A stretch of 49,458 bases of DNA, from NCBI GenBank assembly GCA_964412125.1, contig CAYPNR010000005.1:1-49458 (forward strand), in the 5' to 3' direction. The notes under the pieces were generated by a model, which worked only from the letters and a program-made list of their open reading frames with translations, did not search any database and was not told where the DNA came from. This DNA is from an uncultured Planctomycetota bacterium (GTDB lineage Bacteria; Planctomycetota; SKW154). A program made the position numbers and the translations under genes. Each line of letters opens with the position of its first letter. Position 1 is the stretch's first letter. This document shows, one piece after another, positions 1 to 45,382 of the stretch.

Positions 1-22
1 TCGGGGAGTTGGAGGCGCTGCC

Positions 23-409
23 ATGACGAAGAGGGAATTGGAGCGCTTTCGTCAGTTGCTGCTCAAGCAGAGAGCGATCCTGCGGGGCGACATAGACCGC
101 ATGGGCAACGAGTCGCTCGCCAAGTCCTTTCAGGAGGCCACAGGCGAGGTCTCCAGCATGCCCGTCCACATCGCCGACATATCCGCCGAGAGTTACGAAC
201 AGGAGTTCGCCGTCGGACTTCTCCAGAGCAAGGGCGAGATAGTGGAGGAGATAGACGAAGCGATAAGGCGGATAGACAACAAAACGTACGGAATATGCGA
301 AGAGTGCAGAAGTCGAATACCCAAGCAACGCTTGCTTGCGATACCGTATACGAGGCTGTGCGTCAAATGCCAGGAGGAGATGGAGCGGAGCCGAAAGCGC
401 ATCCGTTGA
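23..409 (+). CDS. DksA/TraR-family C4 zinc-finger protein
   Basis: 128-aa ORF with a helical N-half followed by C-x2-C-x17-C-x2-C (CEEC...CVKC). Its stop overlaps the next start. Confidence 0.8.
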   Translation: MTKRELERFRQLLLKQRAILRGDIDRMGNESLAKSFQEATGEVSSMPVHIADISAESYEQEFAVGLLQSKGEIVEEIDEAIRRIDNKTYGICEECRSRIPKQRLLAIPYTRLCVKCQEEMERSRKRIR

Positions 410-1050
410 ACAGAGCGACGCTCCTGTTCGCGGCGGCCGCGTTGCTCGGACTCGCCGCCGACATCGTCAGCAAGGAGATCGCCTTCGGACTGCTGCCGAA
501 GACCGAGGTGTTCGTCCTCGCCGACCGGGGCAGGGTGCGCGGCACCGTGGTGGCTGAAGACGCGGAGTCGTTCGACGTCCTCACCTCCTCCGGTGTGGAG
601 AAAGTGCGAAAGAGTCGCGTCAGGGGATGGTGTCCGCCCGAGGAAGCCTGGCTCGTGAGAGGATGGGTGGGCTTCCGCCGCTCCCGCAACACCGGCGCGC
701 TGTTCGGCGCGTTCGCCGGCATGGGCGTTCTTTTCGTACTGATCTCGCTGGGCGCCACGGCCGTCATGATCTGGGTGGTCGTCGTGCGGAAGCCCGCTCC
801 GGGACGGTACGTCTCGATCACGCTCGGCCTGCTCGCCGGCGGAATACTGGGCAACCTGTACGACCGCCTGTTCCACGGTTTCGTACGCGACTTCATCGGC
901 CTGCACGCCGGCTCCTTCACGTGGCCGTATTTCAACGTGGCCGACGTCCTGATAGTGGCGGGGATAGGTCTCATGGTCCTCCGCAACCTCGCGGCCGGCA
1001 GGGGCGGAGCGGACGCGGGGGACGGGGATGACGGGGACGGGGAGGATTAG
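406..1050 (+). CDS. lspA: Lipoprotein signal peptidase II with an extended periplasmic insert
   Basis: Motifs RNTGALFG, GNLYDRL and FNVADV are present. I place the start at TTG 406, which overlaps the dksA-like TGA. The ORF-track start at 295 lies inside the previous gene. Confidence 0.8.
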   Translation: MNRATLLFAAAALLGLAADIVSKEIAFGLLPKTEVFVLADRGRVRGTVVAEDAESFDVLTSSGVEKVRKSRVRGWCPPEEAWLVRGWVGFRRSRNTGALFGAFAGMGVLFVLISLGATAVMIWVVVVRKPAPGRYVSITLGLLAGGILGNLYDRLFHGFVRDFIGLHAGSFTWPYFNVADVLIVAGIGLMVLRNLAAGRGGADAGDGDDGDGED

Positions 1051-1052
1051 GC

Positions 1053-2213
1053 TTGACCGGCGAGGAGATGGAAGGGACCGTCATAGAGGGGGAGAAAAGC
1101 GCGCTGCCGTTTTCCCGGGGCATACTCGCCCAGTCGCTGATAGTCTCCGGTCTCGCGCCGCGCGAGGCGTACGAGGTGGCCCGGGAGGTGCAGTCGCTTC
1201 TGGAGCCGGGCAAGCGCTATCGCGAGCGTCAACTGGCGCGGATCGTGTCGGCCCATCTGCGACGCACCAGGGGCGCCGCGGTCGCGCGGCGCTACAGAAA
1301 GTCCATCGACCGTCGACAGGTGTTCTTCGTGAGCAGCGGACGCGGCTCCGCTCCGTTCTCCAAGATGGTGCTGGTCCGCTCGTTGCGCGCGGCCGGCCTG
1401 GACATGCACACCGCCGCCCGGGTCGCTCAGGAGGTGGAACTGCGACTGCGGGCGAGCCACTCGCGTTCGTTGTCGTCGGGCAGGCTGCGCTCGGCGGTCT
1501 CCGCGGCGCTTCGGGAGGGACTCGGACCGGAGTATGTGGAGCGCTATCTGCTCTGGCATCGTGTGAAGCGCTCGTCCAAGCCGCTTGTGGTGCTCGTCGG
1601 CGGCGCCACCGGCGTGGGCAAGTCCACTCTGTCGATAGAGTTGGCCAACGTCCTGGAGATACCGCACGTCGCCTCCACCGACATCATACGCGAGATGATG
1701 CGGACGATGTTCAGCGCCGATCTGCTGCCGCACATCCATTACGCTTCCTATCAGGCCGACTCGGTGAGGCGCTTCACCACGGGCGCCGATCCCATGCTGG
1801 CCGGCTTTCAGGAGCAGGCGGCCCTGGTGGCCGTCGGCGTGAAAGCGATGATCTCCCGCGCGATCAAGGAGAACTCTTCGATAATAGTGAACGGCGTCCA
1901 CATCGTGCCGGGCATCATAGACGCCGCGGAGTTCGAGACCTGCATCACGCAGTTCCTGCTCGTGCTGGACGACGCCTCGTCGCACAGGGCGCGTTTCGGA
2001 CGTCGTCAGCGTCGCGCGCCGCGGCGCCGCGCCCGCGACTATCTGCGCTACTTTCCGGCGATTCGTCGGATACAGAATTTCCTGGTGGACCGGGCCCGCG
2101 AGTGCGGCACGCCGACCATAGAGAGTCACTATTTCGAGGAGACGCTGGACGCGGCGTTGAACTACGTGACCGAGACCGTCGCGAAGAGTCCTTTCTTTGG
2201 AGGCAGGCGGTGA
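1053..2213 (+). CDS. 2-phosphoglycerate kinase (COG2074 type) with an N-terminal ATP-cone-like region
   Basis: P-loop block LVGGATGVGKSTLSIELANVLEIPHVASTDIIREMMR matches my recollection of archaeal 2PGK. The start could be TTG 1053 or ATG 1068. Confidence 0.7.
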   Translation: MTGEEMEGTVIEGEKSALPFSRGILAQSLIVSGLAPREAYEVAREVQSLLEPGKRYRERQLARIVSAHLRRTRGAAVARRYRKSIDRRQVFFVSSGRGSAPFSKMVLVRSLRAAGLDMHTAARVAQEVELRLRASHSRSLSSGRLRSAVSAALREGLGPEYVERYLLWHRVKRSSKPLVVLVGGATGVGKSTLSIELANVLEIPHVASTDIIREMMRTMFSADLLPHIHYASYQADSVRRFTTGADPMLAGFQEQAALVAVGVKAMISRAIKENSSIIVNGVHIVPGIIDAAEFETCITQFLLVLDDASSHRARFGRRQRRAPRRRARDYLRYFPAIRRIQNFLVDRARECGTPTIESHYFEETLDAALNYVTETVAKSPFFGGRR

Positions 2214-3544
2214 GACGTGCGGTGTTCATAATAGACGGCGAGCACTACATGCCGGTGCTGGTGGAGTCCATAGCGCGGATAGAACGCGACCTCGACGTGG
2301 AGGCGGTGGGCGCGGTCTTTCTGGGGACCGCGGAGAAGATCGGAGGCGAGGAGGCGATAGCGTCGCTGGACTTGCCGGTTTTCACGGCGCAGGAGCCGCT
2401 GGCGTCGCTTCGCGAGGCGATCAGGTGCTACTCGCCGGACATGGTGATAGACCTGAGCGACGAGCCGCACATGAGCCTCGCGATGCGGATGAGGGTCGCG
2501 GCGGAGGTGCTGAGCGCGGGCCTGGAGTATCTCGGAGCGGACTTCCGTTTCGAGAGAAAGGCTTTCACGAGGGTGCGGAGGCGCTCCTTCGCGGTCTTCA
2601 GCGTGGCCAAACGCGCGGGCAAGACGGCGGTCTGCTGCACGATAGCGCGCATATTGAAGAGCGTCGGCGAGGAGCCGATCATCTTCACGATGAGTCGCGG
2701 CGGACCGGCCGAGCCGGTCGTGGTGCGGCCGAGCGAGCGTCTGACGCCGGAGCGTCTCCTGGAGTTGGCGAAGACGGGACTGCACGCCGCCGCCGACCAC
2801 TACGAGAACGCGATCTTCTCGGGCGTCGCCACGATAGGCGCGCGTCGCGCCGGAGGCGGCTTCTCCGGCGTTCCGTTCTACACCAACGTTCAGGACGCCA
2901 TACGCACGGCCGGAAAGATGCGCTGCAGCGCTTACGTTTTCGAAGGTTCCGGCTCGGACGCGCCGCCCGTCGAGGGACCCGCGCGGGTGGTGCTGCTGCT
3001 GGCCAACATGAATCCGGCCGCGCTGCGCGAGCCTTTCAATCCGCCGCGGCTGCGCTCCAGTCGCATAGCGTTGATAATGCGCGCGGAGGAGCCGTTCGCC
3101 ACGCGGAAGGAGGTGAACGTCCTGAAGGAGCGCATTCTGGAGGCGAATCCGCGACTGCTGGTCTGCGCGGCCGTGTTGCGACCGCATCTGGCCGCTCCGC
3201 CTCCGGAGGGCTCCAGGGTCGTCGTCGCGTCCACCGCGCCGGAGCCGACGCATCTCCGACTCAAGGAGGACCTGGAGCGCGCCTACGGACTGGAGGTGGT
3301 GGGCATCACCGGCGCTCTGACCAACCGAAAGCGACTGGCGGCGGAGTTAAGGACGCTCTTCAAGGAGAAGCCGAGTCATCTGGTCACGGAGTTGAAGGCG
3401 GCCGCGGTGGAGGTCGGAATACGAAGCGCTCTGGCGCGCGGCGTGGAGGTCTGCCTGCTCGAGAACCGGCCGCAGGACGCCATGGACTGGGAGCCGTCGT
3501 TCAAGGACGTGGTGTTGCAGGCGTTCGAAGAGATGAAGAGGTGA
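2210..3544 (+). CDS. cpgS: Cyclic 2,3-diphosphoglycerate synthetase-like protein
   Basis: GTG 2210 overlaps the upstream TGA (GTGA). The N-terminus FIIDGEHYMPV and the P-loop-like AKRAGKT match my recollection of methanogen cDPG synthetase, as does the ~445 aa length. Upstream of 2210, the 838-aa track ORF is shadow frame. Confidence 0.65.
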   Translation: MRRAVFIIDGEHYMPVLVESIARIERDLDVEAVGAVFLGTAEKIGGEEAIASLDLPVFTAQEPLASLREAIRCYSPDMVIDLSDEPHMSLAMRMRVAAEVLSAGLEYLGADFRFERKAFTRVRRRSFAVFSVAKRAGKTAVCCTIARILKSVGEEPIIFTMSRGGPAEPVVVRPSERLTPERLLELAKTGLHAAADHYENAIFSGVATIGARRAGGGFSGVPFYTNVQDAIRTAGKMRCSAYVFEGSGSDAPPVEGPARVVLLLANMNPAALREPFNPPRLRSSRIALIMRAEEPFATRKEVNVLKERILEANPRLLVCAAVLRPHLAAPPPEGSRVVVASTAPEPTHLRLKEDLERAYGLEVVGITGALTNRKRLAAELRTLFKEKPSHLVTELKAAAVEVGIRSALARGVEVCLLENRPQDAMDWEPSFKDVVLQAFEEMKR

Positions 3545-3574
3545 GCCGCCTGAGGTCATCTGTGGAGGGACATC

Positions 3575-4822
3575 GTGAGCAGACGTGCGGTCATGGTGGT
3601 GATGGACGGTCTCGGCGATCGACCGCTGCCGGAGTTCGAAGGCAGAACGGCGCTGGAGGCCGCGGAGACGCCGAACATGGACCGTCTCGCGGCCGAAGGC
3701 GTCAACGGACTGATGGACCCGCTTGCGCCGGGGGTGCGCGTCGGAACGGACGTGGGCCATCTCGCGCTTTTCGGCTACAATCCCTTGAGGGTCTACTGGG
3801 GTCGGGGACCGATTGAGGCGGCCGGCGTCGGACTCGATCTTCATCCGGGCGACGTCGCCTTCCGCGCCAATTTCGCCACCGTCTCCACCGACGGCAGAAT
3901 ACTCGACCGCCGCGCCGGTCGTCTTCGTGAGGGAACCGCGGAGTTGGCCGCGGCTCTGGACTCCATGCTTCTGTCCGACGGCACGCGGGTCGTTTTCAGG
4001 GCCGCGACCGAGCATCGCGCCGTGCTCGTGCTGCGCGGCGAGAGGCTCTCGCCGCTGGTGAGCGATTCGGATCCGGGTCCGCTCGGCGAAGGCGGCCCGG
4101 TTCTGCCGCTGCTGCCGCGGATGGAGGAGTCGCAGGCGGCGCGTCGCACGGCCGAACTCGCCTCCGAGTTCGTCGAGCGGGCGGCCGGCATACTCGCCGA
4201 GCATCCCGTCAACCGGGAGAGAGTCGACCGCGGTCTGCCGCCGGCGAACTACGTTCTGCTGCGCGGCGCGGGCGTGAGACGCCCCATGCGCTCGCTCGCC
4301 GAGCGCTTCAACATCTCCGGCGCGTGCGTGGCCGCCGAGTGCACCATCGTCGGCATAGCGCGTATGACCGGCTTCGACGTGGTCACCGACGAGCGGTTCA
4401 CCGCCAATCTGGACACGGACGTGGACGCCAAGGCCGCCGCCGCCGTGGACGCGCTCGAGGAGCACGACCTGGTCATAATCCACTACAAAGGCACCGACAT
4501 AGCCAGCCACGACGAGAAGCCGAAAGAGAAGGTGCGTTTCATAGAGCGTGTGGACGCCGCGCTCGAGCGCCTCATCTCGGCCGCGGAGCGATACGATCTC
4601 TATATCGCCGTGACCAGCGACCACTCCACTCCCTGCCACCTGCGGGAGCACTCCGCCGATCCCGTGCCCGTGCTTTTATGGGGCGGAGACGTGCTCACCG
4701 ACGGTGTGAGGTCGTATGGCGAGCGGCCGTGCGTGGCCGGCGGTCTCGGCCGCTTGAGCGCCAACGCTCTGCTGCTGACCCTGCTCGACTATCTCGGCGT
4801 CACATACCGCTTTGGGGGATGA
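3575..4822 (+). CDS. apgM: Archaeal-type cofactor-independent phosphoglycerate mutase
   Basis: The ORF contains MDGLGDRP...TPNMDRLA...GTDVGHLALFGYNP...GRGPIEAAG...GDVAFRANFATV...DRRAGR. Confidence 0.85.
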   Translation: MSRRAVMVVMDGLGDRPLPEFEGRTALEAAETPNMDRLAAEGVNGLMDPLAPGVRVGTDVGHLALFGYNPLRVYWGRGPIEAAGVGLDLHPGDVAFRANFATVSTDGRILDRRAGRLREGTAELAAALDSMLLSDGTRVVFRAATEHRAVLVLRGERLSPLVSDSDPGPLGEGGPVLPLLPRMEESQAARRTAELASEFVERAAGILAEHPVNRERVDRGLPPANYVLLRGAGVRRPMRSLAERFNISGACVAAECTIVGIARMTGFDVVTDERFTANLDTDVDAKAAAAVDALEEHDLVIIHYKGTDIASHDEKPKEKVRFIERVDAALERLISAAERYDLYIAVTSDHSTPCHLREHSADPVPVLLWGGDVLTDGVRSYGERPCVAGGLGRLSANALLLTLLDYLGVTYRFGG

Positions 4823-4825
4823 GAC

Positions 4826-5320
4826 TTGTCCCTCCACGACATGAAGGTCTCCGACATAATGGTGAAGGAGGTGGTCGCGATTCGACCGGGCGCCACCATT
4901 CCGGAACTGTGTCGCGTTCTCGCGCAGCACAACATAACCGGCGTGCCGGTGGTCGCCGAAGGAGGCCGCCTGGTGGGAATCGTTTCGCAGAAGGACGTCA
5001 TGGCGCGTCAGATGCTGCGCGACGAGGAACTGCTGCAGGACGCGGAACTTTACGAACTGCTGGTGGCCCCGCAGATCGATCCGCGGGAGCGCGACTTCGC
5101 CGGCCGTTTCGTGGTGGTGGAGGAGATAATGACCCGCAACGTGGTGACCGCGCGACCGCGGATGAGTCTGGCCGAGACCGCGCGACTGCTGGTCAAACAC
5201 AGGATAAGTCGACTGCCGGTGGTCGAGCGGGGCCGTCTGGTGGGCATCGTCACTCCGTTCGATATACTTCGCGTGCTGGCGCGCGGGACGGGGAAGGGCG
5301 ATAAGGGAAGCGATTTTTGA
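4826..5320 (+). CDS. CBS-pair domain protein
   Basis: Two CBS repeats are visible (VSDIMVKEVVAIRP...ITGVPVV and EIMTRNVVTARP...ISRLPVV). The start is TTG, 3 nt after the apgM stop. Confidence 0.8.
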   Translation: MSLHDMKVSDIMVKEVVAIRPGATIPELCRVLAQHNITGVPVVAEGGRLVGIVSQKDVMARQMLRDEELLQDAELYELLVAPQIDPRERDFAGRFVVVEEIMTRNVVTARPRMSLAETARLLVKHRISRLPVVERGRLVGIVTPFDILRVLARGTGKGDKGSDF

Positions 5321-5345
5321 AAGTCGGTCGTTCTCCTGTTATTAT
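5317..5345 (+). promoter_or_regulatory. Sigma70-like promoter: TTGAAA-N17-TATTAT
   Basis: The -35 box is at 5317-5322 and overlaps the CBS stop. The spacer is 17 nt and the -10 box is at 5340-5345. AGGAGGG precedes ATG 5379. Confidence 0.45.
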
Positions 5346-5378
5346 TGTCCCGCAGTCGGCAATAGGAGGGAATCGACC

Positions 5379-5930
5379 ATGGCGACGGTTCGTCTTACCA
5401 CTCCCCTGTCCGAGGAGGACGTACTCAAACTCCGCGCGGGCGACAAGGTTCTGATAACGGGTGAGGTCTACACCGCCCGCGACGCCGCGCACAAGCGTCT
5501 GATAGAGATGATGGAGCGCGGCGAGCCGCTTCCGTTCGAGCCGAAGGGCGCCGTCATCTACTACGTCGGTCCCGCGCCGGCCAAGCCGGGCTGGGCCGTC
5601 GGCCCCTGCGGTCCGACCACCTCTTATCGAATGGACCCCTACACCGAGGCCATGCTGAAGGCCGGCGTGAAGGCGGTCGTGGGCAAGGGCAACCGCTCGC
5701 AGGAGGTGCGCGACGCGCTCGTCCGCCACAAAGCGGTGTATCTGGCGGCGACCGGCGGCGCGGCCGCGCTCATAGCCAAGTCCGTCAAGGAAGGCGAGAT
5801 AGTCGCCTTCGAGGATCTCGGCACCGAGGCCGTTCGTCGTTTTCGTGTCGAAGAATTTCCCGCCACCGTGGTGAACGACACCGCCGGTGCCGATCTCTAC
5901 GAGGAGGGACGCGCCGAGTATCGCGTGTAA
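5379..5930 (+). CDS. Fe-S hydro-lyase beta subunit (class I fumarase / L-tartrate dehydratase beta type)
   Basis: 183-aa ORF containing GEVYTARDAAHKRL...GPTTSYRMDPY...GKGNRS...ATGGAAAL, which is typical of FumB/TtdB C-terminal domain proteins. Confidence 0.8.
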   Translation: MATVRLTTPLSEEDVLKLRAGDKVLITGEVYTARDAAHKRLIEMMERGEPLPFEPKGAVIYYVGPAPAKPGWAVGPCGPTTSYRMDPYTEAMLKAGVKAVVGKGNRSQEVRDALVRHKAVYLAATGGAAALIAKSVKEGEIVAFEDLGTEAVRRFRVEEFPATVVNDTAGADLYEEGRAEYRV

Positions 5931-5946
5931 CGATAGGAGATACGCC

Positions 5947-6861
5947 GTGGTGAAGACGAACGTCGAGAATCTCGTCAGGACGTGCGTGCTCGGAGAGGTT
6001 CGCCCCCATCTCGCCCGCGCCGGTTATCAGATCACCCACGACGGCCGCCCGGTCGCGGTGCCGTCGGTGGGCGGCGTCTGCTACAACGTCAAGGTGGGCG
6101 ACAGGCTCTGGGACTGGGTCGCGGACCATCTCGAGCCGGGCGTCTCCACCCGCAACAGGGACAGGGAAGACAACGTCGGATACAATCTTTACTCGTGCGT
6201 CGGCAACCGCGCCAGAGTCGTCTCCGGCGACGCCAAGGGCGCGGTCGGAGTGGTCACCGGCAAGCACGGAGGGATAGAGCACGTCATCATCGACTTCGAC
6301 GACAGGACGCTCCGCCGTCTCGTTCCCGGCGACAAGATTCTCGTCGAGGCGTTCGGTCTGGGGCTGGCCCTGTCGGACTGGCCGGGCGTGAAGGTGATGA
6401 ACGTGGATCCCGAACTTCTCGGCAAGATGGGCCTGCGGAAGCGACGCGGCAGGCTGCGCGTCCGCGTCGCCGCGCTCGTTCCCGCGCGGATCATGGGCAG
6501 CGGACTCGGCTCCGAGTCCTCCTATCGCGGCGATTACGACATTCAACTCTTCGACGACGAGACGGTCGCGGAGTTCGGCCTCGATCGTCTCAGGTTCGGC
6601 GACTTCGTCGCCATACTCGACGCGGACCACTCCTACGGCCGCATCTACAAGAAGGGAGCGGTCTCGGTGGGGGTCGTCGTTCACGGCCGCTGCGTCAAGA
6701 GCGGTCACGGACCCGGCGTCACCACGGTGATGACGTCCTCGGACGGTCTGATCGAGCCGGTGATCGACGCGAACGCGAACGTGGGTTACTATCTGAGGCT
6801 CGGACGCTGGCGCGCGCGCGCCGGAAGGAAGCCGGCCGGCGGAAGGAAGAAGCGGGAATGA
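5947..6861 (+). CDS. Conserved hypothetical protein, possibly DUF4438 family
   Basis: GTG 5947 follows GGAGA. Amino-acid composition is clean and four Cys are present. The DUF4438 name is from memory only. Confidence 0.6.
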   Translation: MVKTNVENLVRTCVLGEVRPHLARAGYQITHDGRPVAVPSVGGVCYNVKVGDRLWDWVADHLEPGVSTRNRDREDNVGYNLYSCVGNRARVVSGDAKGAVGVVTGKHGGIEHVIIDFDDRTLRRLVPGDKILVEAFGLGLALSDWPGVKVMNVDPELLGKMGLRKRRGRLRVRVAALVPARIMGSGLGSESSYRGDYDIQLFDDETVAEFGLDRLRFGDFVAILDADHSYGRIYKKGAVSVGVVVHGRCVKSGHGPGVTTVMTSSDGLIEPVIDANANVGYYLRLGRWRARAGRKPAGGRKKRE

Positions 6862-6970
6862 CGAGACGACGTTCCGGGTCGAGGACGCGGCGCACGTGAA
6901 GCCGTGGACTGTTACGGGCTTGTGACAACTTCGTCTTCATAATCGCGGCGGACGCTGTAGGGGCGAAGAA

Positions 6971-9070
6971 GTGATGTTTTCAGGGCGGACGACCGCGTCG
7001 ATCGCGGTGTACTGTTGCGTTTTCGGTTTCTGCGCGGCGCTGTGCGGCGCGCCTCCCGCCTCAGACGCGGACGCTCCGAAGCGGCCCGGCGACGAACGAC
7101 CTTCCACGAAGAAGAACGGCGCCGCGGACGAAGGTCCGCTGGACGAGGTCGAGTTGAACGACGGCCGCGTGATCCGCGGCATCGTTCTCGACGCCGGAGG
7201 CCCGACGATCCGCATAAAACGCAAACTCGGCTCGGTGACCGTGATGAAGAGCGACATCAAGAGATGCACGTTCGCCAGGGACGCGCGACGCGAGCGCGAG
7301 GAGGACGAAGTTCATCTTCGGGACGGACGAATCCTGAAGGGCAGGGTGGAGGTGGACAACGAGACCGGCCGCGTGGCCGTGACGCGGATGCTGCACGGGG
7401 AGCGGCAGAAAGTCTGGCTGGACCCGGCGGAGGTGTTACGGATAAAGAAGGGAGGAGCGCCGCTCGAGCCGGACCTGATCGAGAAGGAGGCCGCCGACCT
7501 GGTCGGCGTCATGGTGAGCGGCACCGAGGAGGAGGCGAAGAAGGCGGAAGAGCGACTGGTGTCGATGGGCATGTTCGCCGTGGAGACGCTCAAGCGTCTG
7601 AGGCTGTCGCAGCCGGTGCGCGTGCAGAAGCGGATAACGCACATTCTCCGCGTCGCGGAACTCAACCGCTATCTGACGCCGAAGATGACCGAGGAGGTGA
7701 AGGACGTCTACGAGAGGCTTCTCGACGGCTCGCCGCGGCAGAAGGTGGACGTGGTGAAGGAGTTGGTTCTCGTGGAGGGCGAGGCGGCCGTGCCGCTGCT
7801 TCTGCATCTCGCGCGGCGCCGCGAGGAGGACGCGCGCGTGCGCGCGATTTGTGTGGCGATGCTGGCGAAGACGCATCGTTACGCGCAACTGGCGGACCTT
7901 CTCGAGAGCGAGGACGGTCGTCTGCGGTTCGCCGCGGCTCTCGCTCTGGCCGACGAAGGCGTCTACGCGGGCGCCGAGCAGTTGCTGAGCGCGCTGAAGA
8001 TGGGCCTGCGGGAGGTACGCGGGCAGGCGCTGGAGCGTCTCAGGCGCCTGGCCGGGACCGACTTCGGATTCGATCCGTCCAAGGACCCCGCCGGGCAGAC
8101 CGAGGCGCTGGACCGCTGGCGGGCGTGGTGGCGGCAGAACTCCGGTCGCGTGCTCAAGGACGCGGCCAAGCAACTCACGCCGGCGGCGGTCAGCGGCGAG
8201 GACCGCGAGTTTTCGGCGATACGCGCGGCGCACGCCGCGGGACTGATGGAGCGCGGACGCCTGGAGGGAGCGCTGCGCGAGTACCGCAGGGCCGCGCGGA
8301 TAGATCCTTCCAACACGCGCGCGCGCCTCGCCGTGGGCGTGCTCACCTACGTGGTCGAGCACGACTACAAGAAGGCCCGCGCCGAGATGATGCGTCTTCT
8401 GTCCGCCTACGATCTGCTGACCGATTCGGTACGCAGGGAGACCAGATACTGGCTCGGGCAGATGGCGCTGGAGAAGGGCGACTGGAAGGAGGCGCTGCAC
8501 CAGTTTCAGGTGGCGCTGTTCACCGACGCCGCCTACATCCCCGCCTACGAGGGACTGGCCAGGGCGCTGCTGCAGCAGTTGAGGGGCGATCCGCTTATGG
8601 CCGGCGACGAGGTGGGTCGCGAGGTTCTGCATCGCCGCGCGACCACCGCTCTCCGCGTGGCGCTCGCCTACATGGACCGCGAACTGAACATGATACGCGA
8701 CGTCGAGTTCCGCGTGTCGTTACGCGAGGCGCACAAGGAACTCGGCGCGCTGCTCGGTCGCTCGATAAAGGTGCGCACCGACGAAGACATAGCGTCGTAC
8801 GAGCGACTGCTGGTGGCGCACAAGGCGCACCTGTACGAGCGTATCGCCGAGGTCGAAATGGCGTTCAAGCGCTACGGCGACGCCGTGGACTCGCTTCAGG
8901 AAGCGGCCATATGCCAGCCGAACAACGCGTACTACCTCTATCGCCTGGGACTGGTCCACGCGATGAGCGGCGACAACGCGGCCGCCAGGGACGCTTTCAA
9001 AAAAGCCCTGGCGAAGAATCCCGATCTACGTCAGGCGCGCGAGGCGCTGGACGCTCTGGAGGGCAAGTAG
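6971..9070 (+). CDS. Secreted HEAT/TPR-repeat protein
   Basis: N-terminal signal peptide (IAVYCCVFGFCAALCGAPPA), HEAT-like repeats in the middle, and TPR-like helices at the C-terminus (AYYLYRLGLVHAMSGDNAAARDAFKKALAKNP). Confidence 0.75.
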   Translation: MMFSGRTTASIAVYCCVFGFCAALCGAPPASDADAPKRPGDERPSTKKNGAADEGPLDEVELNDGRVIRGIVLDAGGPTIRIKRKLGSVTVMKSDIKRCTFARDARREREEDEVHLRDGRILKGRVEVDNETGRVAVTRMLHGERQKVWLDPAEVLRIKKGGAPLEPDLIEKEAADLVGVMVSGTEEEAKKAEERLVSMGMFAVETLKRLRLSQPVRVQKRITHILRVAELNRYLTPKMTEEVKDVYERLLDGSPRQKVDVVKELVLVEGEAAVPLLLHLARRREEDARVRAICVAMLAKTHRYAQLADLLESEDGRLRFAAALALADEGVYAGAEQLLSALKMGLREVRGQALERLRRLAGTDFGFDPSKDPAGQTEALDRWRAWWRQNSGRVLKDAAKQLTPAAVSGEDREFSAIRAAHAAGLMERGRLEGALREYRRAARIDPSNTRARLAVGVLTYVVEHDYKKARAEMMRLLSAYDLLTDSVRRETRYWLGQMALEKGDWKEALHQFQVALFTDAAYIPAYEGLARALLQQLRGDPLMAGDEVGREVLHRRATTALRVALAYMDRELNMIRDVEFRVSLREAHKELGALLGRSIKVRTDEDIASYERLLVAHKAHLYERIAEVEMAFKRYGDAVDSLQEAAICQPNNAYYLYRLGLVHAMSGDNAAARDAFKKALAKNPDLRQAREALDALEGK

Positions 9071-10266
9071 TGAAATCCGGTGCCGGCGGCGAGAGGCGCG
9101 TCGTCTATCGGACGAAAGGGACCTCTCTGGAACTCTACACCTCCGGCGACACCAGTGTGATGCTGATGCGCGGCCGTTTCGATCCCAAGTTCGGCGAGCG
9201 CGCGCTCGCCAATCTCCCTTCCGGCAACGTGGCGCTGGAGTTGCACGACGTCTCGCCGATGGACGTCTCTTTCGTGGTGTTTCTGCGGAACCTGCGGCGT
9301 CGGGTCGAGGCGGCCGGCGGCAGATTCTGGCTGCTGCGCCCGCCCGGACGCCTGCTGGACATAATACAGATGTCGTCTTCGGATCGCGAGTTCGAGGCGG
9401 TTCAGGAGGTGCCCGACGCCGGTTCGACCTCGGCGGACGGACGCGTCCGCCGCGAAGGCGGTCCGTCCGCGGAGATGACGCATCGCATAATGTCGGTTCG
9501 CAGAGACGCGCTCCGCTCCGCGGAACTGGAGCGATCGATGGTCGCCGCGCGCGAGCGCGTGCGCTCGCTCTTCCCGAAGGTTCCGCCGACGTTCGAGCGC
9601 TTCGACACGGCGTTCGTCTACATGCCCTGCGAGGTGATCGGAGGAGACTTCTTCGGCTTCGTTCCGCTCGACGAAGGCCGCACCGGCGTCTTCATCGGCG
9701 ACGTGGCCGGACACGGTATCGAGGCGGCCGTCCTCGTCGGCATGGCGAAAAAGACGTTCGAGATATGGGGACGCTCCATGGACGACGCCGCCGACGTGAT
9801 GGTCCAGTGCAACGCCGATCTCACAGGCGATCTCGACAGGAACACTTTTCTGACGGCCATCTACGGCGTGCTCGACGAACGCGACCTTTCTTTCACTTTC
9901 GCCCGCGCGGGCCACAATCTTCCGGTGCTCGTACGTTCCGGGCGACCGCCCGAGACCGTCGAGGCGCACGGCATGGGCATCGGCATCGGCGATACGGAAA
10001 CCTTCCGGAAACTCTTGAAAACCACACGTGTCGTACTGGAGCCGGGCGACATGCTGCTGCTCTACACCGACGGCATGGTCGAGGCCGCGGACGCCTCCGG
10101 CGCCGAGTTCACCGTGAGACGTCTGCTCGACGCCGTGGGCGATCTGAAAGAGACCGCTCCGGTCACGTGTCTGCGTACGGTGATGCGCGCACTTTACGAG
10201 TTCACCGGCTCCAACGCCCAGCAGGACGACATCACCGCCATCTGCATCTCCGCCAAGGGGCGATGA
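9070..10266 (+). CDS. STAS-domain / PP2C (SpoIIE-RsbU type) serine phosphatase fusion
   Basis: GTG 9070 overlaps the upstream TAG by 1 nt. PP2C motifs GGDFFGF, GDVAGHG, LYTDG and QQDDIT are present. The N-terminal ~110 aa look STAS-like. Confidence 0.8.
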   Translation: MKSGAGGERRVVYRTKGTSLELYTSGDTSVMLMRGRFDPKFGERALANLPSGNVALELHDVSPMDVSFVVFLRNLRRRVEAAGGRFWLLRPPGRLLDIIQMSSSDREFEAVQEVPDAGSTSADGRVRREGGPSAEMTHRIMSVRRDALRSAELERSMVAARERVRSLFPKVPPTFERFDTAFVYMPCEVIGGDFFGFVPLDEGRTGVFIGDVAGHGIEAAVLVGMAKKTFEIWGRSMDDAADVMVQCNADLTGDLDRNTFLTAIYGVLDERDLSFTFARAGHNLPVLVRSGRPPETVEAHGMGIGIGDTETFRKLLKTTRVVLEPGDMLLLYTDGMVEAADASGAEFTVRRLLDAVGDLKETAPVTCLRTVMRALYEFTGSNAQQDDITAICISAKGR

Positions 10267-21288: not shown

Positions 21289-22818
21289 TCACCGACCCGG
21301 CTTCTTCTTCGGCGGTCTGAGAGTCAGTTGTCTTGCGGTCTGTCCGAACTTGGGCGCCAGCGCCCTGTCGGTCAGTCGCTGCTTGAAGACTCTGCCGCGC
21401 GGCGTGCGGCCGGTCTCCATTATCCGCATCATGTCGTCGGCCGTCTTGTCGCTGTCGAACCAGACGGTGAGTCTGGAGCCCTCCGGTCGTATCTGAACCG
21501 AGTGGAGACGCATGGCGCCGCGCACGTCGCTCTGCAGATAGACCAGATCTTCGAGAATGTCGGTCACTCCGATCACCTCTCGTTCCATTTCGCCGGTCTT
21601 GCGGATCTCCAGGAGGCGCTCGAACGTTTCGAGATACTCGTTCACGGTGACGGCGCTGCGACGCGCCTTGGTCAGCGCGCGTTCGCCGGGGAACAGTTCC
21701 CTGAAGTATCTGTTCGCCTTGGCGCGCATGACCTGCACCTGACGATGGTCGCGCGTCGCTTTGAACTTGTAAGCGTAAGCGGCCAGCAGCGTCACGAAGA
21801 ACAGCAGCGTGACCAGACATGCGAGACCGCTTTTTATCTGCTCGAACGGCTTCTGGAACGCGAAGGGTCCGCGGCGCATGTCGAGTTTGAACTCGGCCTG
21901 GCCGAGGAGCCGCAGCGCCGCGCCCGCGGCCGCGACGCCGATCCTGTCGAGACGCGTCTTCTTCTCGTCGCTGAGACCCTCGCCCAGCGACTCCGACAGA
22001 CTGAACCGCTCCACAGGACAGGGAAGTTTCCGCGAGAGTTCCGCCAGGAGAAACTCCTCGCAGTCTCCCGCGGCGAGGAGGCCGGCGGGCGTGAACTCCA
22101 GACCGGCGCTGGCGATGGTGGTGCGGAGTTCCCTTACCAGTTTGGAGGCGCGACGCGAAGCGTCGCCGCGCGTCGACCGCATCGTTCGAATCTTGTTCAG
22201 TTCGCCGTCGTTGTGGAGGTAGAGGAGGACGGTTTCGCCGCAGAAGACGAGCGCCGCTTCGATGCCTTCCTCCCGCGGTTTGTAGCCGGCCGCCAGCAAC
22301 GCGTTGTACGCCGCGCCGACGTCCATGTCGAGCACGCGGGGATTGCAACCGGCGCGCGTCGCCTCCGACAGCGCCGCGCCCACCCGCTCGACCGGCATCG
22401 CCGTCAGAAACACGCGACTCTTTCCCTCCTCGCCTCCGAGACGGTGGAAGTCGATCAGATAGTCTTCCATCCTTCCGCCCGCGATCAGGCGTTCCGCCTC
22501 GAACGGTATCGTCCGTCGGATGTGGTCCGGCTTGGTGAACGGAACGACGACCTCGCGCATCAGTCCGTGCTTGGCCGGCAGGACCAGCGAGGCGGTTCGC
22601 GCGGGAAGACGCGAGAGGAGAGTCTTGAGCGCCCGCACGCGGGGCTCTTCGCGTTCCTCGTCCGACTCCTCGTCGTTTTCCCCGCCGCCGTCGACGGACT
22701 TGTCCTCCGGCACGGGCTCGATCTCCACGTTCCGGATCAGCGCTCGACGTCCGCGTCGAACCGCTTCGACGCCCACCATCAGTCCGTCGTGCGCCGCTAT
22801 GCCGAGAGCCGTTTCCAT
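21289..22818 (-). CDS. gspL: GspL-like (PilM-PilN fusion type) T2SS protein
   Basis: An actin-like cytoplasmic N-domain, a central TM helix (GLACLVTLLFFVTLLAAYAY) and a periplasmic C-domain. It lies between gspC/PilP-like and gspM-like genes. Confidence 0.65.
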   Translation of the reverse strand: METALGIAAHDGLMVGVEAVRRGRRALIRNVEIEPVPEDKSVDGGGENDEESDEEREEPRVRALKTLLSRLPARTASLVLPAKHGLMREVVVPFTKPDHIRRTIPFEAERLIAGGRMEDYLIDFHRLGGEEGKSRVFLTAMPVERVGAALSEATRAGCNPRVLDMDVGAAYNALLAAGYKPREEGIEAALVFCGETVLLYLHNDGELNKIRTMRSTRGDASRRASKLVRELRTTIASAGLEFTPAGLLAAGDCEEFLLAELSRKLPCPVERFSLSESLGEGLSDEKKTRLDRIGVAAAGAALRLLGQAEFKLDMRRGPFAFQKPFEQIKSGLACLVTLLFFVTLLAAYAYKFKATRDHRQVQVMRAKANRYFRELFPGERALTKARRSAVTVNEYLETFERLLEIRKTGEMEREVIGVTDILEDLVYLQSDVRGAMRLHSVQIRPEGSRLTVWFDSDKTADDMMRIMETGRTPRGRVFKQRLTDRALAPKFGQTARQLTLRPPKKKPGR

Positions 22819-22828
22819 CGTTCGGTCC

Positions 22829-23344
22829 TTATTGAAACCGCGGTTCCCATTTCACTATGCCTTCGCGCTTGTCCTCCGAGACGAAACGCAGGACGTAACG
22901 CTTGCCGCCGTCCTCCGCGCCGACCTCCGTCAGCGTCACCTTCTGCGGCTTTTCGTAGACGGTCTCGCCGACGCCGATGAAACGCGCGACGCCGTCCACC
23001 TCCGCCATCATGCCCGCCATCTTCGGCTTGCCTTCGCCGTAGAGAACGCCGTGCAACTTCACCTTCGCGAGAATCTCGTCCACCAGTTTGGGCACCTTCG
23101 GCTCCGCCGGCTCCGCGGGTTTGCTCACGTAGAGATGCGCGAGCATGGCGATGGCCTCGCGCATCCGGCGATCGACCGGCGCCTTCACGGTGGTCTGCGG
23201 CACGTAGTCCCGCGCGTCTATCACCTCCACCGCCCGCTCCTTGAAGAAGTCGCCCATGGGGTTGAAAAAGTAGATGCACATTCCGACCAGCGCCGCTATC
23301 AGCGAAAGGTTCAGCAACACTACCACCGCTCTTACTTTTCTCAT
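22829..23344 (-). CDS. GspC/PilP-like bitopic protein (HR-domain-like C-terminus)
   Basis: ATG 23344 overlaps the gspK stop (ATGA). It has an N-terminal TM helix, and the C-terminus KLHGVLYGEGKPKMAGMMAEVDG...VGETVY...VTLTEV resembles PilP / GspC HR domains. Confidence 0.5.
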   Translation of the reverse strand: MRKVRAVVVLLNLSLIAALVGMCIYFFNPMGDFFKERAVEVIDARDYVPQTTVKAPVDRRMREAIAMLAHLYVSKPAEPAEPKVPKLVDEILAKVKLHGVLYGEGKPKMAGMMAEVDGVARFIGVGETVYEKPQKVTLTEVGAEDGGKRYVLRFVSEDKREGIVKWEPRFQ

Positions 23345-24743: not shown

Positions 24744-24772
24744 ATTTTACACGCCGCGGACCCTTGCGTCAA
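24744..24772 (-). promoter_or_regulatory. Sigma70-like promoter: TTGACG-N17-TAAAAT
   Basis: The minus-strand -35 box at 24772-24767 overlaps the RACo stop codon. The -10 box is at 24749-24744, about 45 nt upstream of ATG 24698. Confidence 0.5.
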
Positions 24773-26688
24773 GCCCTGCCCGGCGCGCAGACCGACGGGA
24801 ACTCCGACAGGTCGGTGTGCGGAATGAAATTCGCCCTGCCGAACTCCTCCATGAAATCGACGCTGGTCATCAGATCCACATAAGTCATGCGTCGCGAGAC
24901 GTCCAGCATGCAGCGGTAGGCGTCCTCCGACGACAGCGCCATACGCGCGCCCGTGACCGAGGTGTTGCCCGCGAAGACGATCCGTCCCGGATCCACGTCC
25001 GGAAGCATACCGACGGTGACCGCGCTGCGCACGTTGACGCAGTTTCCGAAGCCGCCGGCCAGGTAGAAACGCTCTATCACCTCCAGCGGCATTCCCAACT
25101 GACGCAGGAGCAGTTTGATCGCCGCGTAGACCGCCGCTTTCGAGCGCAGGAGATTCGCTATGTCGACCTCGTTGAGGGTTATGGCGCGACCCGAGGCCGA
25201 CTCCTTTTCGTCGGCGAGCACGAATTCGGCCACGTCGTCGACCACCGCCAGCCGCTCCGAGGTCGACTCGCGGTTGAACTTGCCGTTCCGACCGAGTACG
25301 CCCGCGCAGAAGAGTTGCGCTATGGTGTCGAGCAAGCCGCTGCCGCAGATGCCGCGCGGCCGGCCTCCGCCTATCACGTCGAGGATGATTTTCGGCGGCG
25401 CGCCGCTTGCGCGTTCCACGCGCACGGCCTCGACGGCGCCTTCGGCGGCGCGCATCCCGTGCTCGACGCCGCTTCCCTCGAACGCCGGTCCGGCGCTGCA
25501 GGAGCAGCAGGCCAGGAACTCCTTGTTGCCGAGCACCACCTCGCCGTTGGTGCCGATGTCCACGAACAGCATCACCTCCTCGGCTTCGTTCATGCCCACC
25601 GCCACCACGCCCGCGGTGATGTCGCTGCCGACGTACGCGGCCACGCCCGGCAGCGGATAGAGCACCGCTCGATTGTGAATCTCTATGCCCACCTGCGCGG
25701 CGCGGATCGGCGGTACTATGCTCGCCACCGGCACGAACGGCTCGCGCCGCAGCCGCGTCGGATCGAGGCCCAGCAGGAAATGTATCATCGCAGTGTTGCC
25801 CGCCGCCACCATCCCCATGACCTCGTCGGTTCGGCGGCCGTTCCTCTCGCATATCGTCGAGACCAGATCGTTTATGTCGGAGACGACGAGTCTCTGCATC
25901 AGGTCGAAGGCGTCGTTCTGCTCCGCGTATATGATCCGCGAAATGTAGTCCTCGCCGTAGGCCATCTGCGAGTTGTACTTCGCCTCCATGTCGATGGTGT
26001 GTCCGTCGCTTAAGTCCACCAGGTGCACCACCACGGTCGTCGTGCCCACGTCCACCGCCACGCCGAGGGCGTGCGCGGCCGTGTCGCACGGCTCGACGTC
26101 CATTATCTCGTAGGTGTTCAGACGCATTCCGACGGTGACCGTCACCTCGCCGCCGCATTCCCGGAGCACTCTTCCCATCTTCTGCATGATCCGGTAGCCC
26201 GCCTGCAACGGCATCTCGGAGCGGCCCAGTTTCTTGCGCAGCGCCGTCCGCAGTCGCTCGTAGTCGCCTATCGGCCGGTCCGTCTCCGCCTCCTCCACCG
26301 TCAGCGGGACTTTCTTGACGAGCGGGTCGTACTCGAACCTGTCCGCCATGGAGACGCCTGCGAACCGCACCGCCTCCTCGCCGGTCAGAATCTTGCCGCC
26401 GGTCAGTCTCGCCTCCTCCGGCACCTCCACCGTCAGGTCGGTGGCCGCTTCGCTCCGGCAGGCCAGTATCCAGCCTTCCTTCCGCTCGGCCTCGTCCAGT
26501 TCATACGCGGACGGCCGTTGCGAGACCTTGCCGGAGAGGATCCTCACGCGACACTTGCCGCAGACCCCTTCTCCGCCGCAGACGGAATTGATGTAGACTC
26601 CGCCGGCCTGCGCCGCCTCAAGTACGGTCTGACCGCGTTTGATCGTCACCTGCACTCCGGACGGCAGGAATTTCACACGACATGACAT
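24769..26688 (-). CDS. Corrinoid activation/regeneration protein (RACo/AcsV type: 2Fe-2S ferredoxin + ASKHA ATPase)
   Basis: N-terminal plant-type ferredoxin motif (CGGEGVCGKCRV...ACR). ASKHA motifs GVAVDVGTTT, VDIGTNGE and CSCSAGPAFEG are present. Confidence 0.85.
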   Translation of the reverse strand: MSCRVKFLPSGVQVTIKRGQTVLEAAQAGGVYINSVCGGEGVCGKCRVRILSGKVSQRPSAYELDEAERKEGWILACRSEAATDLTVEVPEEARLTGGKILTGEEAVRFAGVSMADRFEYDPLVKKVPLTVEEAETDRPIGDYERLRTALRKKLGRSEMPLQAGYRIMQKMGRVLRECGGEVTVTVGMRLNTYEIMDVEPCDTAAHALGVAVDVGTTTVVVHLVDLSDGHTIDMEAKYNSQMAYGEDYISRIIYAEQNDAFDLMQRLVVSDINDLVSTICERNGRRTDEVMGMVAAGNTAMIHFLLGLDPTRLRREPFVPVASIVPPIRAAQVGIEIHNRAVLYPLPGVAAYVGSDITAGVVAVGMNEAEEVMLFVDIGTNGEVVLGNKEFLACCSCSAGPAFEGSGVEHGMRAAEGAVEAVRVERASGAPPKIILDVIGGGRPRGICGSGLLDTIAQLFCAGVLGRNGKFNRESTSERLAVVDDVAEFVLADEKESASGRAITLNEVDIANLLRSKAAVYAAIKLLLRQLGMPLEVIERFYLAGGFGNCVNVRSAVTVGMLPDVDPGRIVFAGNTSVTGARMALSSEDAYRCMLDVSRRMTYVDLMTSVDFMEEFGRANFIPHTDLSEFPSVCAPGRA

Positions 26689-26720
26689 CTCTCCATCCTC
26701 CGGTGAGTTTCACGAAGCGT

Positions 26721-34583: not shown

Positions 34584-35792
34584 CTACTTTTCCGACAGCG
34601 CCCTGTGCGCGTACGAAAGCGCCATCACCGCGTATGCCGTGGCAAGTGCGGGCTGGTTTTCGTACCATCTTTTGTTTTCGTTTTTCCATGTGCCGTCGGC
34701 GCCCTGCATGCCGACCAGTTTTTCGATCAACTCGGCCGCCCAGTTGTGCGCGCCGCCGCGCTCGTCCTTTATCTCCTTCTTTCCGTGGTGGTACAGCGCC
34801 TTCGCCAGAGTCATGTAGTAGTAGTAGAGGCCCTGCAGATGCGAGCCGGCGTACTTCTTGGCGGAGATGCCCGGATTCTCGTCCAGCGTCCAGTTGCGCC
34901 GTATCCAGCCCCAGACGCCCTTGACGCGGCTGTCGTCTCTGTCGACGAAAGCGTATATCATGCTCAGAAGCGCCGCGTAGGTCATCGAGCCGTAAGACGG
35001 ATAAGAAACCGTGCCGTCGGGGTTCTCCACCTTCACGCTCGAACGCGTCATGCCCGGCCCGTAGATGCCGCCGCCGTCGTTGGTCGGCTTGAAAGGCTTG
35101 CCGTCGGCGGTCTTTATCTTCGCCTGGTTCGCCTCGGGATTGTTCAGCGAACGTGTGACGAAAGCGTCCATCCGCCTGAACGCTTCGTGTCCCTTTTCGA
35201 GTCGCGCGTCGCGCAGCGCGCCCGCCGCGAAGGTGGTGTTCGACATGTCGCATCGTTCCTTCTTCGCCTCCTTGTCGTAGCCCCAGCCTCCGTTCCTGAC
35301 GTCCTCCTTCGCCATCGGGTTCCAGTACTGCGCGTTCAGGAGATAGTCCTTCATCGCCTCGATTTCCTTCTTGTACTTCTCGTAATCGTATCTCGACAGG
35401 ATGGAGAGGAGAACGCTCGTCTTGTACACCACGTTGCCCTGCTCGTCGGAGACCGAGCCGTCGTTGCGCAGGAACTTCATCAGATAGCCGATGCCCTTCT
35501 CGATCGTCCGCCGATACTTTTCGCGGAGCGGACTTTCCACGAGCGCCAGCACGCAGATGGAGGTGATCCCCGCGCCCGCCCGCGGATCGCCTATGCAGCC
35601 GTCTTCGTTCTGCCGGGCCTTGAAGAACTCCGCCGCCTTGTCCATGGAGACCTCCGCTTTCTTTGCGTATGCGGCCTCGTCCGAGCCGCCGCCCGTCGGC
35701 GTCTGCTGCGCCGGTCGGCCGCCTTCCGGCTCTCGGCCGCCGCATCCCGCGATCAACAGGACTCCGATCAGAACCAGCCCCATCCGCCTCAA
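34584..35792 (-). CDS. Lipoprotein with prenyltransferase/terpene-cyclase-like alpha-alpha toroid repeats
   Basis: AGGAGG, then 7 nt, then TTG 35792 yields MRRMGLVLIGVLLIAGC, which contains a lipobox. Repeats of the form GGWGY, DGSV and DGTWKNE are present. The ORF-track ATG at 35846 lies upstream of the predicted -10 box. Confidence 0.75.
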   Translation of the reverse strand: MRRMGLVLIGVLLIAGCGGREPEGGRPAQQTPTGGGSDEAAYAKKAEVSMDKAAEFFKARQNEDGCIGDPRAGAGITSICVLALVESPLREKYRRTIEKGIGYLMKFLRNDGSVSDEQGNVVYKTSVLLSILSRYDYEKYKKEIEAMKDYLLNAQYWNPMAKEDVRNGGWGYDKEAKKERCDMSNTTFAAGALRDARLEKGHEAFRRMDAFVTRSLNNPEANQAKIKTADGKPFKPTNDGGGIYGPGMTRSSVKVENPDGTVSYPSYGSMTYAALLSMIYAFVDRDDSRVKGVWGWIRRNWTLDENPGISAKKYAGSHLQGLYYYYMTLAKALYHHGKKEIKDERGGAHNWAAELIEKLVGMQGADGTWKNENKRWYENQPALATAYAVMALSYAHRALSEK

Positions 35793-35837
35793 CGCTCGCC
35801 CTCCTATTACGCTCCTCGTTCGCTCTCCTCTCGTCTG

Positions 35838-35843
35838 ATTATA
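35838..35843 (-). promoter_or_regulatory. Perfect TATAAT -10 box for the lipoprotein gene
   Basis: Minus strand reads TATAAT across 35843-35838. The -35 box is poor (CGAAAA). It lies about 45 nt upstream of TTG 35792. Confidence 0.3.
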
Positions 35844-35991
35844 CACGTATCGACTCCGGTTTTCGCTCTTTGTCCGCGTCTTGCGCGCTCCGCCTCCGCG
35901 GAAGCCCTCACCCCGGGTGTTCAGCGTCGCGCGCCGCCGCGGGGTTCAGTTGCGCGCGGCCGCGTTCGTCGGAAGCGGCGGGCGGTTGTTG

Positions 35992-36072: not shown

Positions 36073-36351
36073 ATGGAGAACGCCGTGCGACTGCACGTCT
36101 TCTTCGAGGGCTTCGTTCAGGGAGTGGGCTTTCGTTACACCGCGGTTCACATCTCCCGCGACTTCGACGTCGCCGGCTTCGTACGCAACCTTTCCGACGG
36201 ACGCGTGGAGTTGGTGGCGGAGGGCGACGCGAAGGAGGTGCGCGGATTCGTCGGCCGCATCCGTGAGGTGATGCGCCGTTACATACACCAGGCGACCGTC
36301 ACGGAGGAGTCGCCGAGCGGTGAATTCGACTCCTTCCGCATCACATATTAG
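36073..36351 (+). CDS. acyP: Acylphosphatase
   Basis: 92 aa from ATG 36073, preceded by the RBS GGAGGG. The ORF contains V.G.VQGVGFRY......A....V.GFVRN..DG.VE..AEG. Confidence 0.88.
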   Translation: MENAVRLHVFFEGFVQGVGFRYTAVHISRDFDVAGFVRNLSDGRVELVAEGDAKEVRGFVGRIREVMRRYIHQATVTEESPSGEFDSFRITY

Positions 36352-45348: not shown

Positions 45349-45382
45349 CTCCTCTCCTCCAATCCTGCTGCAGACGTTTTTT

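Follow-up and report, generated by a model that had tools for sequence, protein, structure and literature searches.

A candidate operon for cyclic 2,3-diphosphoglycerate synthesis in an uncultured, deep-branching bacterium

The DNA analysed here, 49,458 nt of contig CAYPNR010000005.1 from an uncultured bacterium (hereafter the window), carries four closely spaced genes on the + strand at positions 1053–5320, according to both the listing of open reading frames (ORFs) and a direct reading of the sequence. We consider it likely that these genes form a biosynthetic operon for cyclic 2,3-diphosphoglycerate (cDPG) in a deep-branching, probably thermophilic and anaerobic bacterium of hydrothermal environments. 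They encode homologues of 2-phosphoglycerate kinase (2PGK) and of cyclic 2,3-diphosphoglycerate synthetase (CpgS, here cDPGS), an archaeal-type cofactor-independent phosphoglycerate mutase (ApgM) and a protein with a pair of CBS domains. This interpretation draws on the enzyme homologies, on the conserved ligand contacts of the synthetase and on a co-directional, coupled gene order that is conserved across divergent relatives; the activities and the cDPG product are predicted from sequence. An earlier note on this DNA had described four co-directional, tightly packed genes with the same identities. The ORF listing agrees with that description, and matches in NCBIfam, Pfam and the PDB support the identities.

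In the proposed route, ApgM would convert glycolytic 3-phosphoglycerate to 2-phosphoglycerate, which the 2PGK homologue would phosphorylate with ATP to 2,3-bisphosphoglycerate (2,3-BPG). The cDPGS homologue would then form the intramolecular phosphoanhydride at the expense of a second ATP, so that each cDPG would cost two ATP. These reaction steps are those of the established methanogen pathway (PMC12136491), and the route, which the earlier note had also proposed, is the best reading of the genes. The tandem ATP-cones of the kinase and the CBS-pair protein could sense adenine nucleotides and gate the flux by the energy state of the cell. As a solute, the product could protect against heat and osmotic stress and store phosphate or energy, the functions proposed for it in methanogens.

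Predicted enzymes of the cassette

Characterised cDPGS consists of an N-terminal dimerisation domain and an LpxK-like P-loop domain. The second gene of the cassette (ORF 2210; 2210–3544, +; 444 aa, GTG start) matches the cDPG synthetase of Methanothermus fervidus (PDB 8ORU/8ORK) at E 2.8e-78, with residues 3–438 of 444 aligned to chain residues 5–447, and is ~40% identical to it end to end. Another PDB entry named cyclic 2,3-diphosphoglycerate synthetase (9SXB, 436 aa) is matched at E 2.5e-67; the Methanopyri, Thermoplasmata and Gaiellaceae cDPGS sequences that we tried also match 9SXB less well than 8ORU. Searches with the Pfam-A and NCBIfam profiles gave no match to ORF 2210. The Pfam result likely reflects a database version that predates the newer family PF27272 (CpgS_N), and hence is not evidence against cDPGS membership; a precomputed PF27272 assignment is present on a database protein identical to the product of ORF 2210 (P0001). 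The earlier note had suggested a comparison with unrelated P-loop families, and none scored better, the next PDB match after the cDPGS entries lying at E 0.13.

The residues that contact the ligands in the M. fervidus enzyme have been described as E45 and K46 of the partner subunit together with K145 and R146 for 2,3-DPG, T150 and D208 for Mg2+, and E305, T353 and E404 for ADP (PMC10690619). All nine are identical in ORF 2210 (E42, K43, K134, R135, T139, D196, E293, T342 and E394), and they are near-invariant across 83 other cDPGS homologues (alignment of 84 sequences with the window protein). The N-terminal IDGEHY and the AKRAGKT quoted in the earlier note are both present. The latter belongs to a P-loop, SVAKRAGKT, in which the core K-R-x-G-K-T is intact and the two leading glycines are replaced by S and A. 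The form GTGKRxGKT occurs in 77 of the 84 aligned sequences, while the four sequences nearest to the window protein have the P-loops SLTKRAGKT, GLAKRVGKT and GLSKRSGKT.

The first gene of the cassette (ORF 1053; 1053–2213, +; 386 aa, TTG start) encodes a long-form 2PGK homologue. Its top families by far are the NCBIfam models NF003259, 2-phosphoglycerate kinase (E 1.5e-94, 316.9 bits), and NF008994 (E 1.2e-93, 314.4 bits), compared with only 73.5 bits for the related mevalonate-3-phosphate 5-kinase model. The architecture expected of a 2PGK, an N-terminal ATP-cone followed by a P-loop kinase domain, is present. The Pfam ATP-cone lies at residues 100–170 (E 5.7e-11), AAA_17 and AAA_18 match at residues 180–223, and the P-loop GGATGVGKST and the downstream STDIIREMMR read as the earlier note had quoted them. 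A search of the first 95 residues gave a second, weak ATP-cone match at residues 10–82 (E 7e-4, sub-threshold), so that the kinase probably carries two ATP-cones in tandem.

Long-form kinases of this type also occur in another setting. In two loci, L088 (7001–8146) and L089 (1132–2277), a homologue with an ATP-cone that is 41% identical to the window kinase is flanked by yceG and crcB, and the gene calls include no cDPGS in the 9 kb and 3.3 kb of these loci, respectively. A related protein from Desulfurobacteriaceae carries only the name 'ATP cone domain-containing protein'. Roles outside cDPG synthesis are conceivable for the long-form kinase.

The third gene (ORF 3575; 3575–4822, +; 415 aa, GTG start) passes the cut-offs of both ApgM models, with 494.5 bits against NF003104 (cut-off 489) and 435.1 bits against TIGR00306 (cut-off 320). 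Over residues 2–414 it matches the cofactor-independent mutase in PDB 2ZKT (iPGM) at E 5.6e-106. No other gene of the cassette is as well conserved as that of the mutase, which has 57–73% identity in related loci. The last gene of the block (ORF 4826; 4826–5320, +; 164 aa, TTG start) encodes a stand-alone protein of two CBS domains (PF00571, E 4.3e-34) and no other domain. The solved proteins closest to it are MJ1225 and MJ0100, which bind adenosyl ligands. From what is known of these families, it is plausible that the ATP-cones and the CBS pair are adenylate sensors.

Compared to the cDPG pathway of M. fervidus (8ORK/8ORU; PMC10690619), the cassette thus holds the same two enzyme families, a synthetase that keeps the ligand contacts and a kinase of the same ATP-cone and P-loop architecture. 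It differs in that its host is bacterial and its genes stand in a putative operon with an ApgM and a CBS protein. The kinase has a probable second ATP-cone and the synthetase has substituted P-loop glycines. Biochemical characterisation is limited to the methanogen enzymes, as the earlier note had stated (PMC10690619, PMC12136491).

Gene order and its conservation

The cassette is preceded by two further genes that appear to belong to the same unit. The first (23–409, +) encodes a yteA-like zinc-finger protein of the DksA/TraR type (Pfam zf-dskA_traR, E 2.7e-12; TIGR02890, E 2.5e-27). The second (406–1050, +) encodes the lipoprotein signal peptidase LspA (Pfam Peptidase_A8, E 2e-27). Its TTG start at 406, taken from the gene call on a near-identical contig (L084) together with the window sequence, overlaps the dksA stop codon in a TTGA, and its end lies 2 nt ahead of the kinase start. 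The tight unit therefore comprises six genes, 23–5320. From the gene spacing, the dksA-like gene and lspA are probably co-transcribed with the four-gene cassette as one conserved block.

Within the cassette, the TTG start of the kinase has a GGAGG 7 nt upstream. Kinase and synthetase are joined by a 4-nt GTGA start/stop overlap (2210–2213), the GTG start that the earlier note had pointed out, with a GGAGG 6 nt upstream. ApgM is preceded by a 30-nt gap that contains GGAGGG and the CBS gene by a 3-nt gap. These overlaps and Shine-Dalgarno sites fit translational coupling of the block genes. A promoter-like site with a TG element, TTGAAA-17-TATTAT (5317–5345, +), follows the CBS stop codon and precedes the next gene, which starts at 5379 behind a GGAGG of its own. 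It is a consensus match only, at 10 of 12 positions, and the best in 1–7000. This site and the separate ribosome-binding site of the next gene suggest that the transcription unit ends at 5320, which is probably its 3' boundary. A terminator scan gave a result no better than that for shuffled sequence. Neither Rfam nor a tRNA scan yielded an RNA element anywhere in the window, and hence there is no riboswitch or other RNA element to tie to the block.

The near-identical ENA contig L084, which comes from another metagenome and represents the same organism, has the gene calls dksA, lspA, 2PGK, cDPGS, apgM and CBS, followed by Fumerase_C and DUF4438. Its synthetase (P0121) has the same length as the window protein and falls in the same near-identical cluster. 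The same six-gene order was also found in much more divergent loci: L001 and L002 (JGI 3300005098/9), L085 (JGI 3300009503), L086 (JGI 3300003332) and L087. The contig name of L086 contains 'GBSed', which we read as Guaymas Basin sediment, and L087 is labelled as a hydrothermal vent metagenome in its ENA record. L001/L002 and L085–L087 have different flanking genes and GC contents between 46 and 66%, and compared to the window they are down to 43–54% identity for cDPGS and 45–60% for 2PGK. That the six-gene order persists over such divergence is an argument that the linkage is under selection and that the lineage has long inherited the block vertically.

The order of the four cassette genes reaches further. 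The exact order 2PGK-cDPGS-ApgM-CBS, with a long-form kinase, is also present in L014, L015, L021 (Poribacteria) and L023, and a CBS-pair gene occupies the same position in L001–L003, L014, L015, L021, L023 and L085–L087. In total, the gene order of the window was found again in at least nine independent loci with a cDPGS identity of only 37–55%, and this recurrence in divergent loci indicates that the arrangement is more than chance. In every member of the window clade, the cDPGS gene lies between 2PGK and a phosphoglycerate mutase gene.

The cassettes of the Poribacteria and other bacterial metagenome-assembled genomes (MAGs), that is, L014, L015, L021 and L023, resemble the window in gene order, orientation, long-form 2PGK (365–385 aa matched) and ApgM (57–59% identical). 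However, their cDPGS is only 37–39% identical and falls in another clade of the distance trees, and the P-loop in L021 is the canonical GMGKRVGKT. A tblastn search of these four loci with the DksA and LspA proteins of the window gave no match. What sets the window lineage apart is the six-gene block, together with the modified P-loop and the tandem ATP-cones; the lineage shares the dedicated ApgM and the CBS partner with the Poribacteria-type cassette. In Actinomycetota, Bacillota and Coriobacteriia, which supply the nearest cDPGS clade in the distance trees, the same two families are again adjacent and co-directional. In contrast to the window, cDPGS comes first in these pairs and the kinase lies downstream, in a short form (~280–300 aa matched), and neither an ApgM nor a CBS gene stands directly in the pair.

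Occurrence, host and alternative readings

Relatives of cDPGS are widespread. A pattern scan over one genome per species of the Genome Taxonomy Database (GTDB) found them in at least 564 species genomes, a count that is a lower bound. Many of these are bacterial and many mesophilic, with Chloroflexota among the phyla. Among the best 80 of these at least 564 loci, the bacterial ones include Actinomycetota, Bacillota, Anaerolineae, Coriobacteriia, Poribacteria, Neomarinimicrobiota and Aquicultor, and the archaeal ones include Methanobacteriales (gut Methanobrevibacter and Methanosphaera included), Thermoplasmata, Haloferacaceae and Theionarchaea. Public records already label bacterial homologues '(cyclic) 2,3-diphosphoglycerate synthetase'.

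Coupling to the kinase follows a distinct pattern. Counting only loci with enough flanking sequence, and using a 6-kb distance for the Methanobacteriales, a 2PGK gene adjoins cDPGS in the same direction in 22 of 26 bacterial loci, in 6 of 7 archaeal loci outside the Methanobacteriales and in none of 34 Methanobacteriales loci. The coupled operon is thus typical of bacteria and absent from the sampled members of the order to which the best-studied M. fervidus belongs. The rarity implied by the earlier note is contradicted by this distribution.

Cyclic DPG has been said to occur only in (hyper)thermophilic methanogens (PMC10690619, PMC12136491), and cDPGS genes have been reported in ancestral ammonia-oxidising archaea (PMC7554672). 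We also observed cDPGS commonly in mesophilic Methanobacteriales from gut and peat (Methanobrevibacter, Methanosphaera and Methanobacterium; loci L008–L081), which is at odds with a restriction of cDPG to hyperthermophiles. In the open-access literature searched, we found no report of cDPG, cDPGS or the pathway in Bacteria. Bacteria very probably make cDPG, a conclusion that is unreported in this literature but already implicit in database annotation.

The window encodes a bacterial GatB whose best non-self match has 54% identity; its named matches, at 46–50%, are spread over Planctomycetota, Acidobacteriota and Gemmatimonadota. By this measure the host belongs to a deep bacterial lineage that is poorly sampled. 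The earlier note had assumed a diderm bacterium, and this is plausible, as LspA and a GspK-like type II secretion protein encoded in the window are compatible with a diderm envelope. A Prismane/CO-dehydrogenase family protein (43381–45609, −; E 1.4e-171) and a RACo-type reductive activator of corrinoid proteins (24772–26709, −) suggest an anaerobic host with a C1 metabolism of the Wood-Ljungdahl type. The IVYWREL fraction is 0.429 over 22 window proteins and their charged-versus-polar bias is 11.5. The regression of growth temperature on this fraction, reportedly that of Zeldovich et al. 2007, would place the host at ~67 °C. Together with the hydrothermal origin of the relatives, the amino-acid composition makes a thermophilic host likely.

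What cDPG would do in such a host allows for more than one answer. It is conceivable, although in our judgement unlikely, that the same enzymes serve a different role, with cDPG acting mainly as a reversible high-energy phosphate store rather than as a thermoprotectant. The synthetase would then run backwards at low energy (cDPG + ADP + Pi -> 2,3-BPG + ATP), with the ATP-cones and the CBS protein setting the direction. The presence of two kinds of putative adenylate-sensing module in one cassette would suit this role, and the distantly related enzyme ArcE is reversible and conserves energy as ATP (PMC11032458). Moreover, pure thermoprotection leaves unexplained why cDPGS is abundant in mesophiles, for example Methanobrevibacter of the gut and Actinomycetota of the soil. 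However, the sequence carries no sign of reversibility, and the hydrothermal habitat and the amino-acid composition fit a thermoprotective solute. Nor are thermoprotection and storage mutually exclusive.

A wider proposal would combine both functions. Here, cDPG would be a widespread bacterial metabolite, and the vent lineage would have its most elaborate, self-contained and adenylate-gated form, with two ATP-cones on the 2PGK, an altered P-loop in the cDPGS, an ApgM of its own and a CBS protein as sensor. This system, which would have stayed linked to dksA-lspA through deep divergence, would provide a reversible phosphate and energy store that also stabilises proteins. We regard this proposal as possible but doubtful.

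With respect to origin, the earlier note had viewed the block as an old, ameliorated archaeal acquisition. The first half of this claim stood up: long residence of the block in this bacterial lineage is supported. The GC content is 0.66–0.67 throughout the block, the same as in the remaining window, and GC3 is ~0.8, the same as in adjacent genes, in keeping with the shared GC and codon style that the note had described. An archaeal source did not hold up. We computed neighbour-joining trees of 47 cDPGS sequences from corrected p-distances, with 200 bootstraps and midpoint rooting, without an outgroup; such trees are adequate to reject nesting inside the methanogens, not to root the family. The five-member clade of the window was monophyletic in 200 of 200 bootstraps and its sister group was archaeal in none. 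It joined Gaiellales-like Actinomycetota in 159 of 200, while the archaea, together with one Neomarinimicrobiota sequence, formed their own clade in 139 of 200. As the window clade sits on a long branch and the trees are without an outgroup, its exact sister is uncertain.

Acquisition of the block from a (hyper)thermophilic methanogen, followed by amelioration, is therefore improbable. Its appeal lies in the methanogen origin of the characterised enzymes, in the archaeal type of the ApgM, with 2ZKT as its best PDB match, and in a block composition equal to that of the host, as expected after long residence. Yet the trees place the window clade with bacteria, the coupled arrangement is absent from the Methanobacteriales loci, and the block is joined to the bacterial dksA-lspA throughout the lineage. 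A recent or methanogen-derived transfer is thus unsupported, while the outgroup-free trees are still compatible with a very ancient transfer between the domains, in either direction. A different gene is a better candidate for transfer from archaea to bacteria than that of the window: the cDPGS at 4962–6236 of L072, a Candidatus Neomarinimicrobiota MAG, nests in the clade of Thermoplasmata and halophilic archaea in the distance trees. The L072 locus gave no match to 2PGK.

It is very improbable that ORF 2210 is a diverged paralogue which, owing to its altered P-loop, acts as an ArcE-like or other ADP-forming ligase or as a phosphotransferase on another phosphorylated acid: the glycine substitutions confined to the window clade, its long branch, the absence of Pfam and NCBIfam matches and the membership of the arginine synthetase ArcE in the superfamily (PMC11032458) are outweighed by the conservation of all 2,3-DPG and Mg2+ contacts, by 2PGK and phosphoglycerate mutase neighbours that are fixed in every clade member, and by the low similarity of ArcE to cDPGS (PMC11032458), compared with the ~40% full-length identity of ORF 2210. 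ArcE itself (TK2200 of Thermococcus kodakarensis) is an ADP-forming enzyme, and its authors used cDPGS homologues as an outgroup (PMC11032458). In contrast to ORF 2210, it associates with arcB and arcC rather than with 2PGK and ApgM. No ornithine transcarbamoylase or carbamate kinase family was found among the Pfam-scanned genes of the window, and on the published description of ArcE we rejected an assignment of ORF 2210 to this enzyme.

Several points nevertheless weigh against the interpretation of the block as a cDPG operon. The published papers that we found give cDPG as known only from methanogens, and the bacterial members are known from their sequences. The wider superfamily holds a quite different reaction in ArcE, a distant relative of cDPGS (PMC11032458). 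Glycines of the P-loop that are retained in nearly all other members are substituted in the window clade, which could change the kinetics or the specificity. By its scores, the kinase is a clear homologue and not a certified equivalog, as it lies under the equivalog cut-offs of both NCBIfam models (343 for NF003259 and 603 for NF008994). Co-transcription of the block is deduced from gene spacing only. Finally, the growth temperature given above is a rough estimate, which the high GC content may have raised.

If the operon makes cDPG, this would give direct grounds to overturn the statement by which the 2023 and 2025 papers restrict cDPG to hyperthermophilic methanogens, and would also offer a bacterial, operon-encoded and easily transplanted route to an extremolyte of biotechnological interest. 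The dedicated mutase, the probable tandem ATP-cones and the CBS protein would be handles on the control of flux into cDPG, which even in methanogens is not yet understood. As a matter of genome annotation, the case is an ordinary one, since many homologues in bacterial MAGs are already labelled cDPG synthetase and the window adds one lineage.

Neighbouring genes

Directly downstream of the block, a gene for a stand-alone beta subunit of an Fe-S hydro-lyase (5379–5930, +; Fumerase_C only; NF005310, 256.5 bits, cut-off 238) overlaps a DUF4438 gene (5887–6861, +) by 44 nt. The pair is present in L084 too, and no alpha-subunit gene was seen nearby; the DUF4438 protein might be the partner of the beta subunit. 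These genes are followed by a 699-aa ORF (6971–9070, +), whose translation looks repeat-rich, and by a gene for a STAS-SpoIIE (PP2C-type) phosphatase (9100–10263, +). Together they point to a regulatory module of the partner-switching kind a short way downstream of the block.

Elsewhere in the window, three long ORFs of high GC3 gave no Pfam match (21292–22851, −; 34587–35945, −; 36272–38290, +). The last of these encodes an Ala-rich polytopic membrane protein, which is the probable source of an AT skew of −0.41 and a GC peak of 0.73 at 36–38 kb. The AT skew at 36–37 kb was accordingly rejected as a part of the finding.

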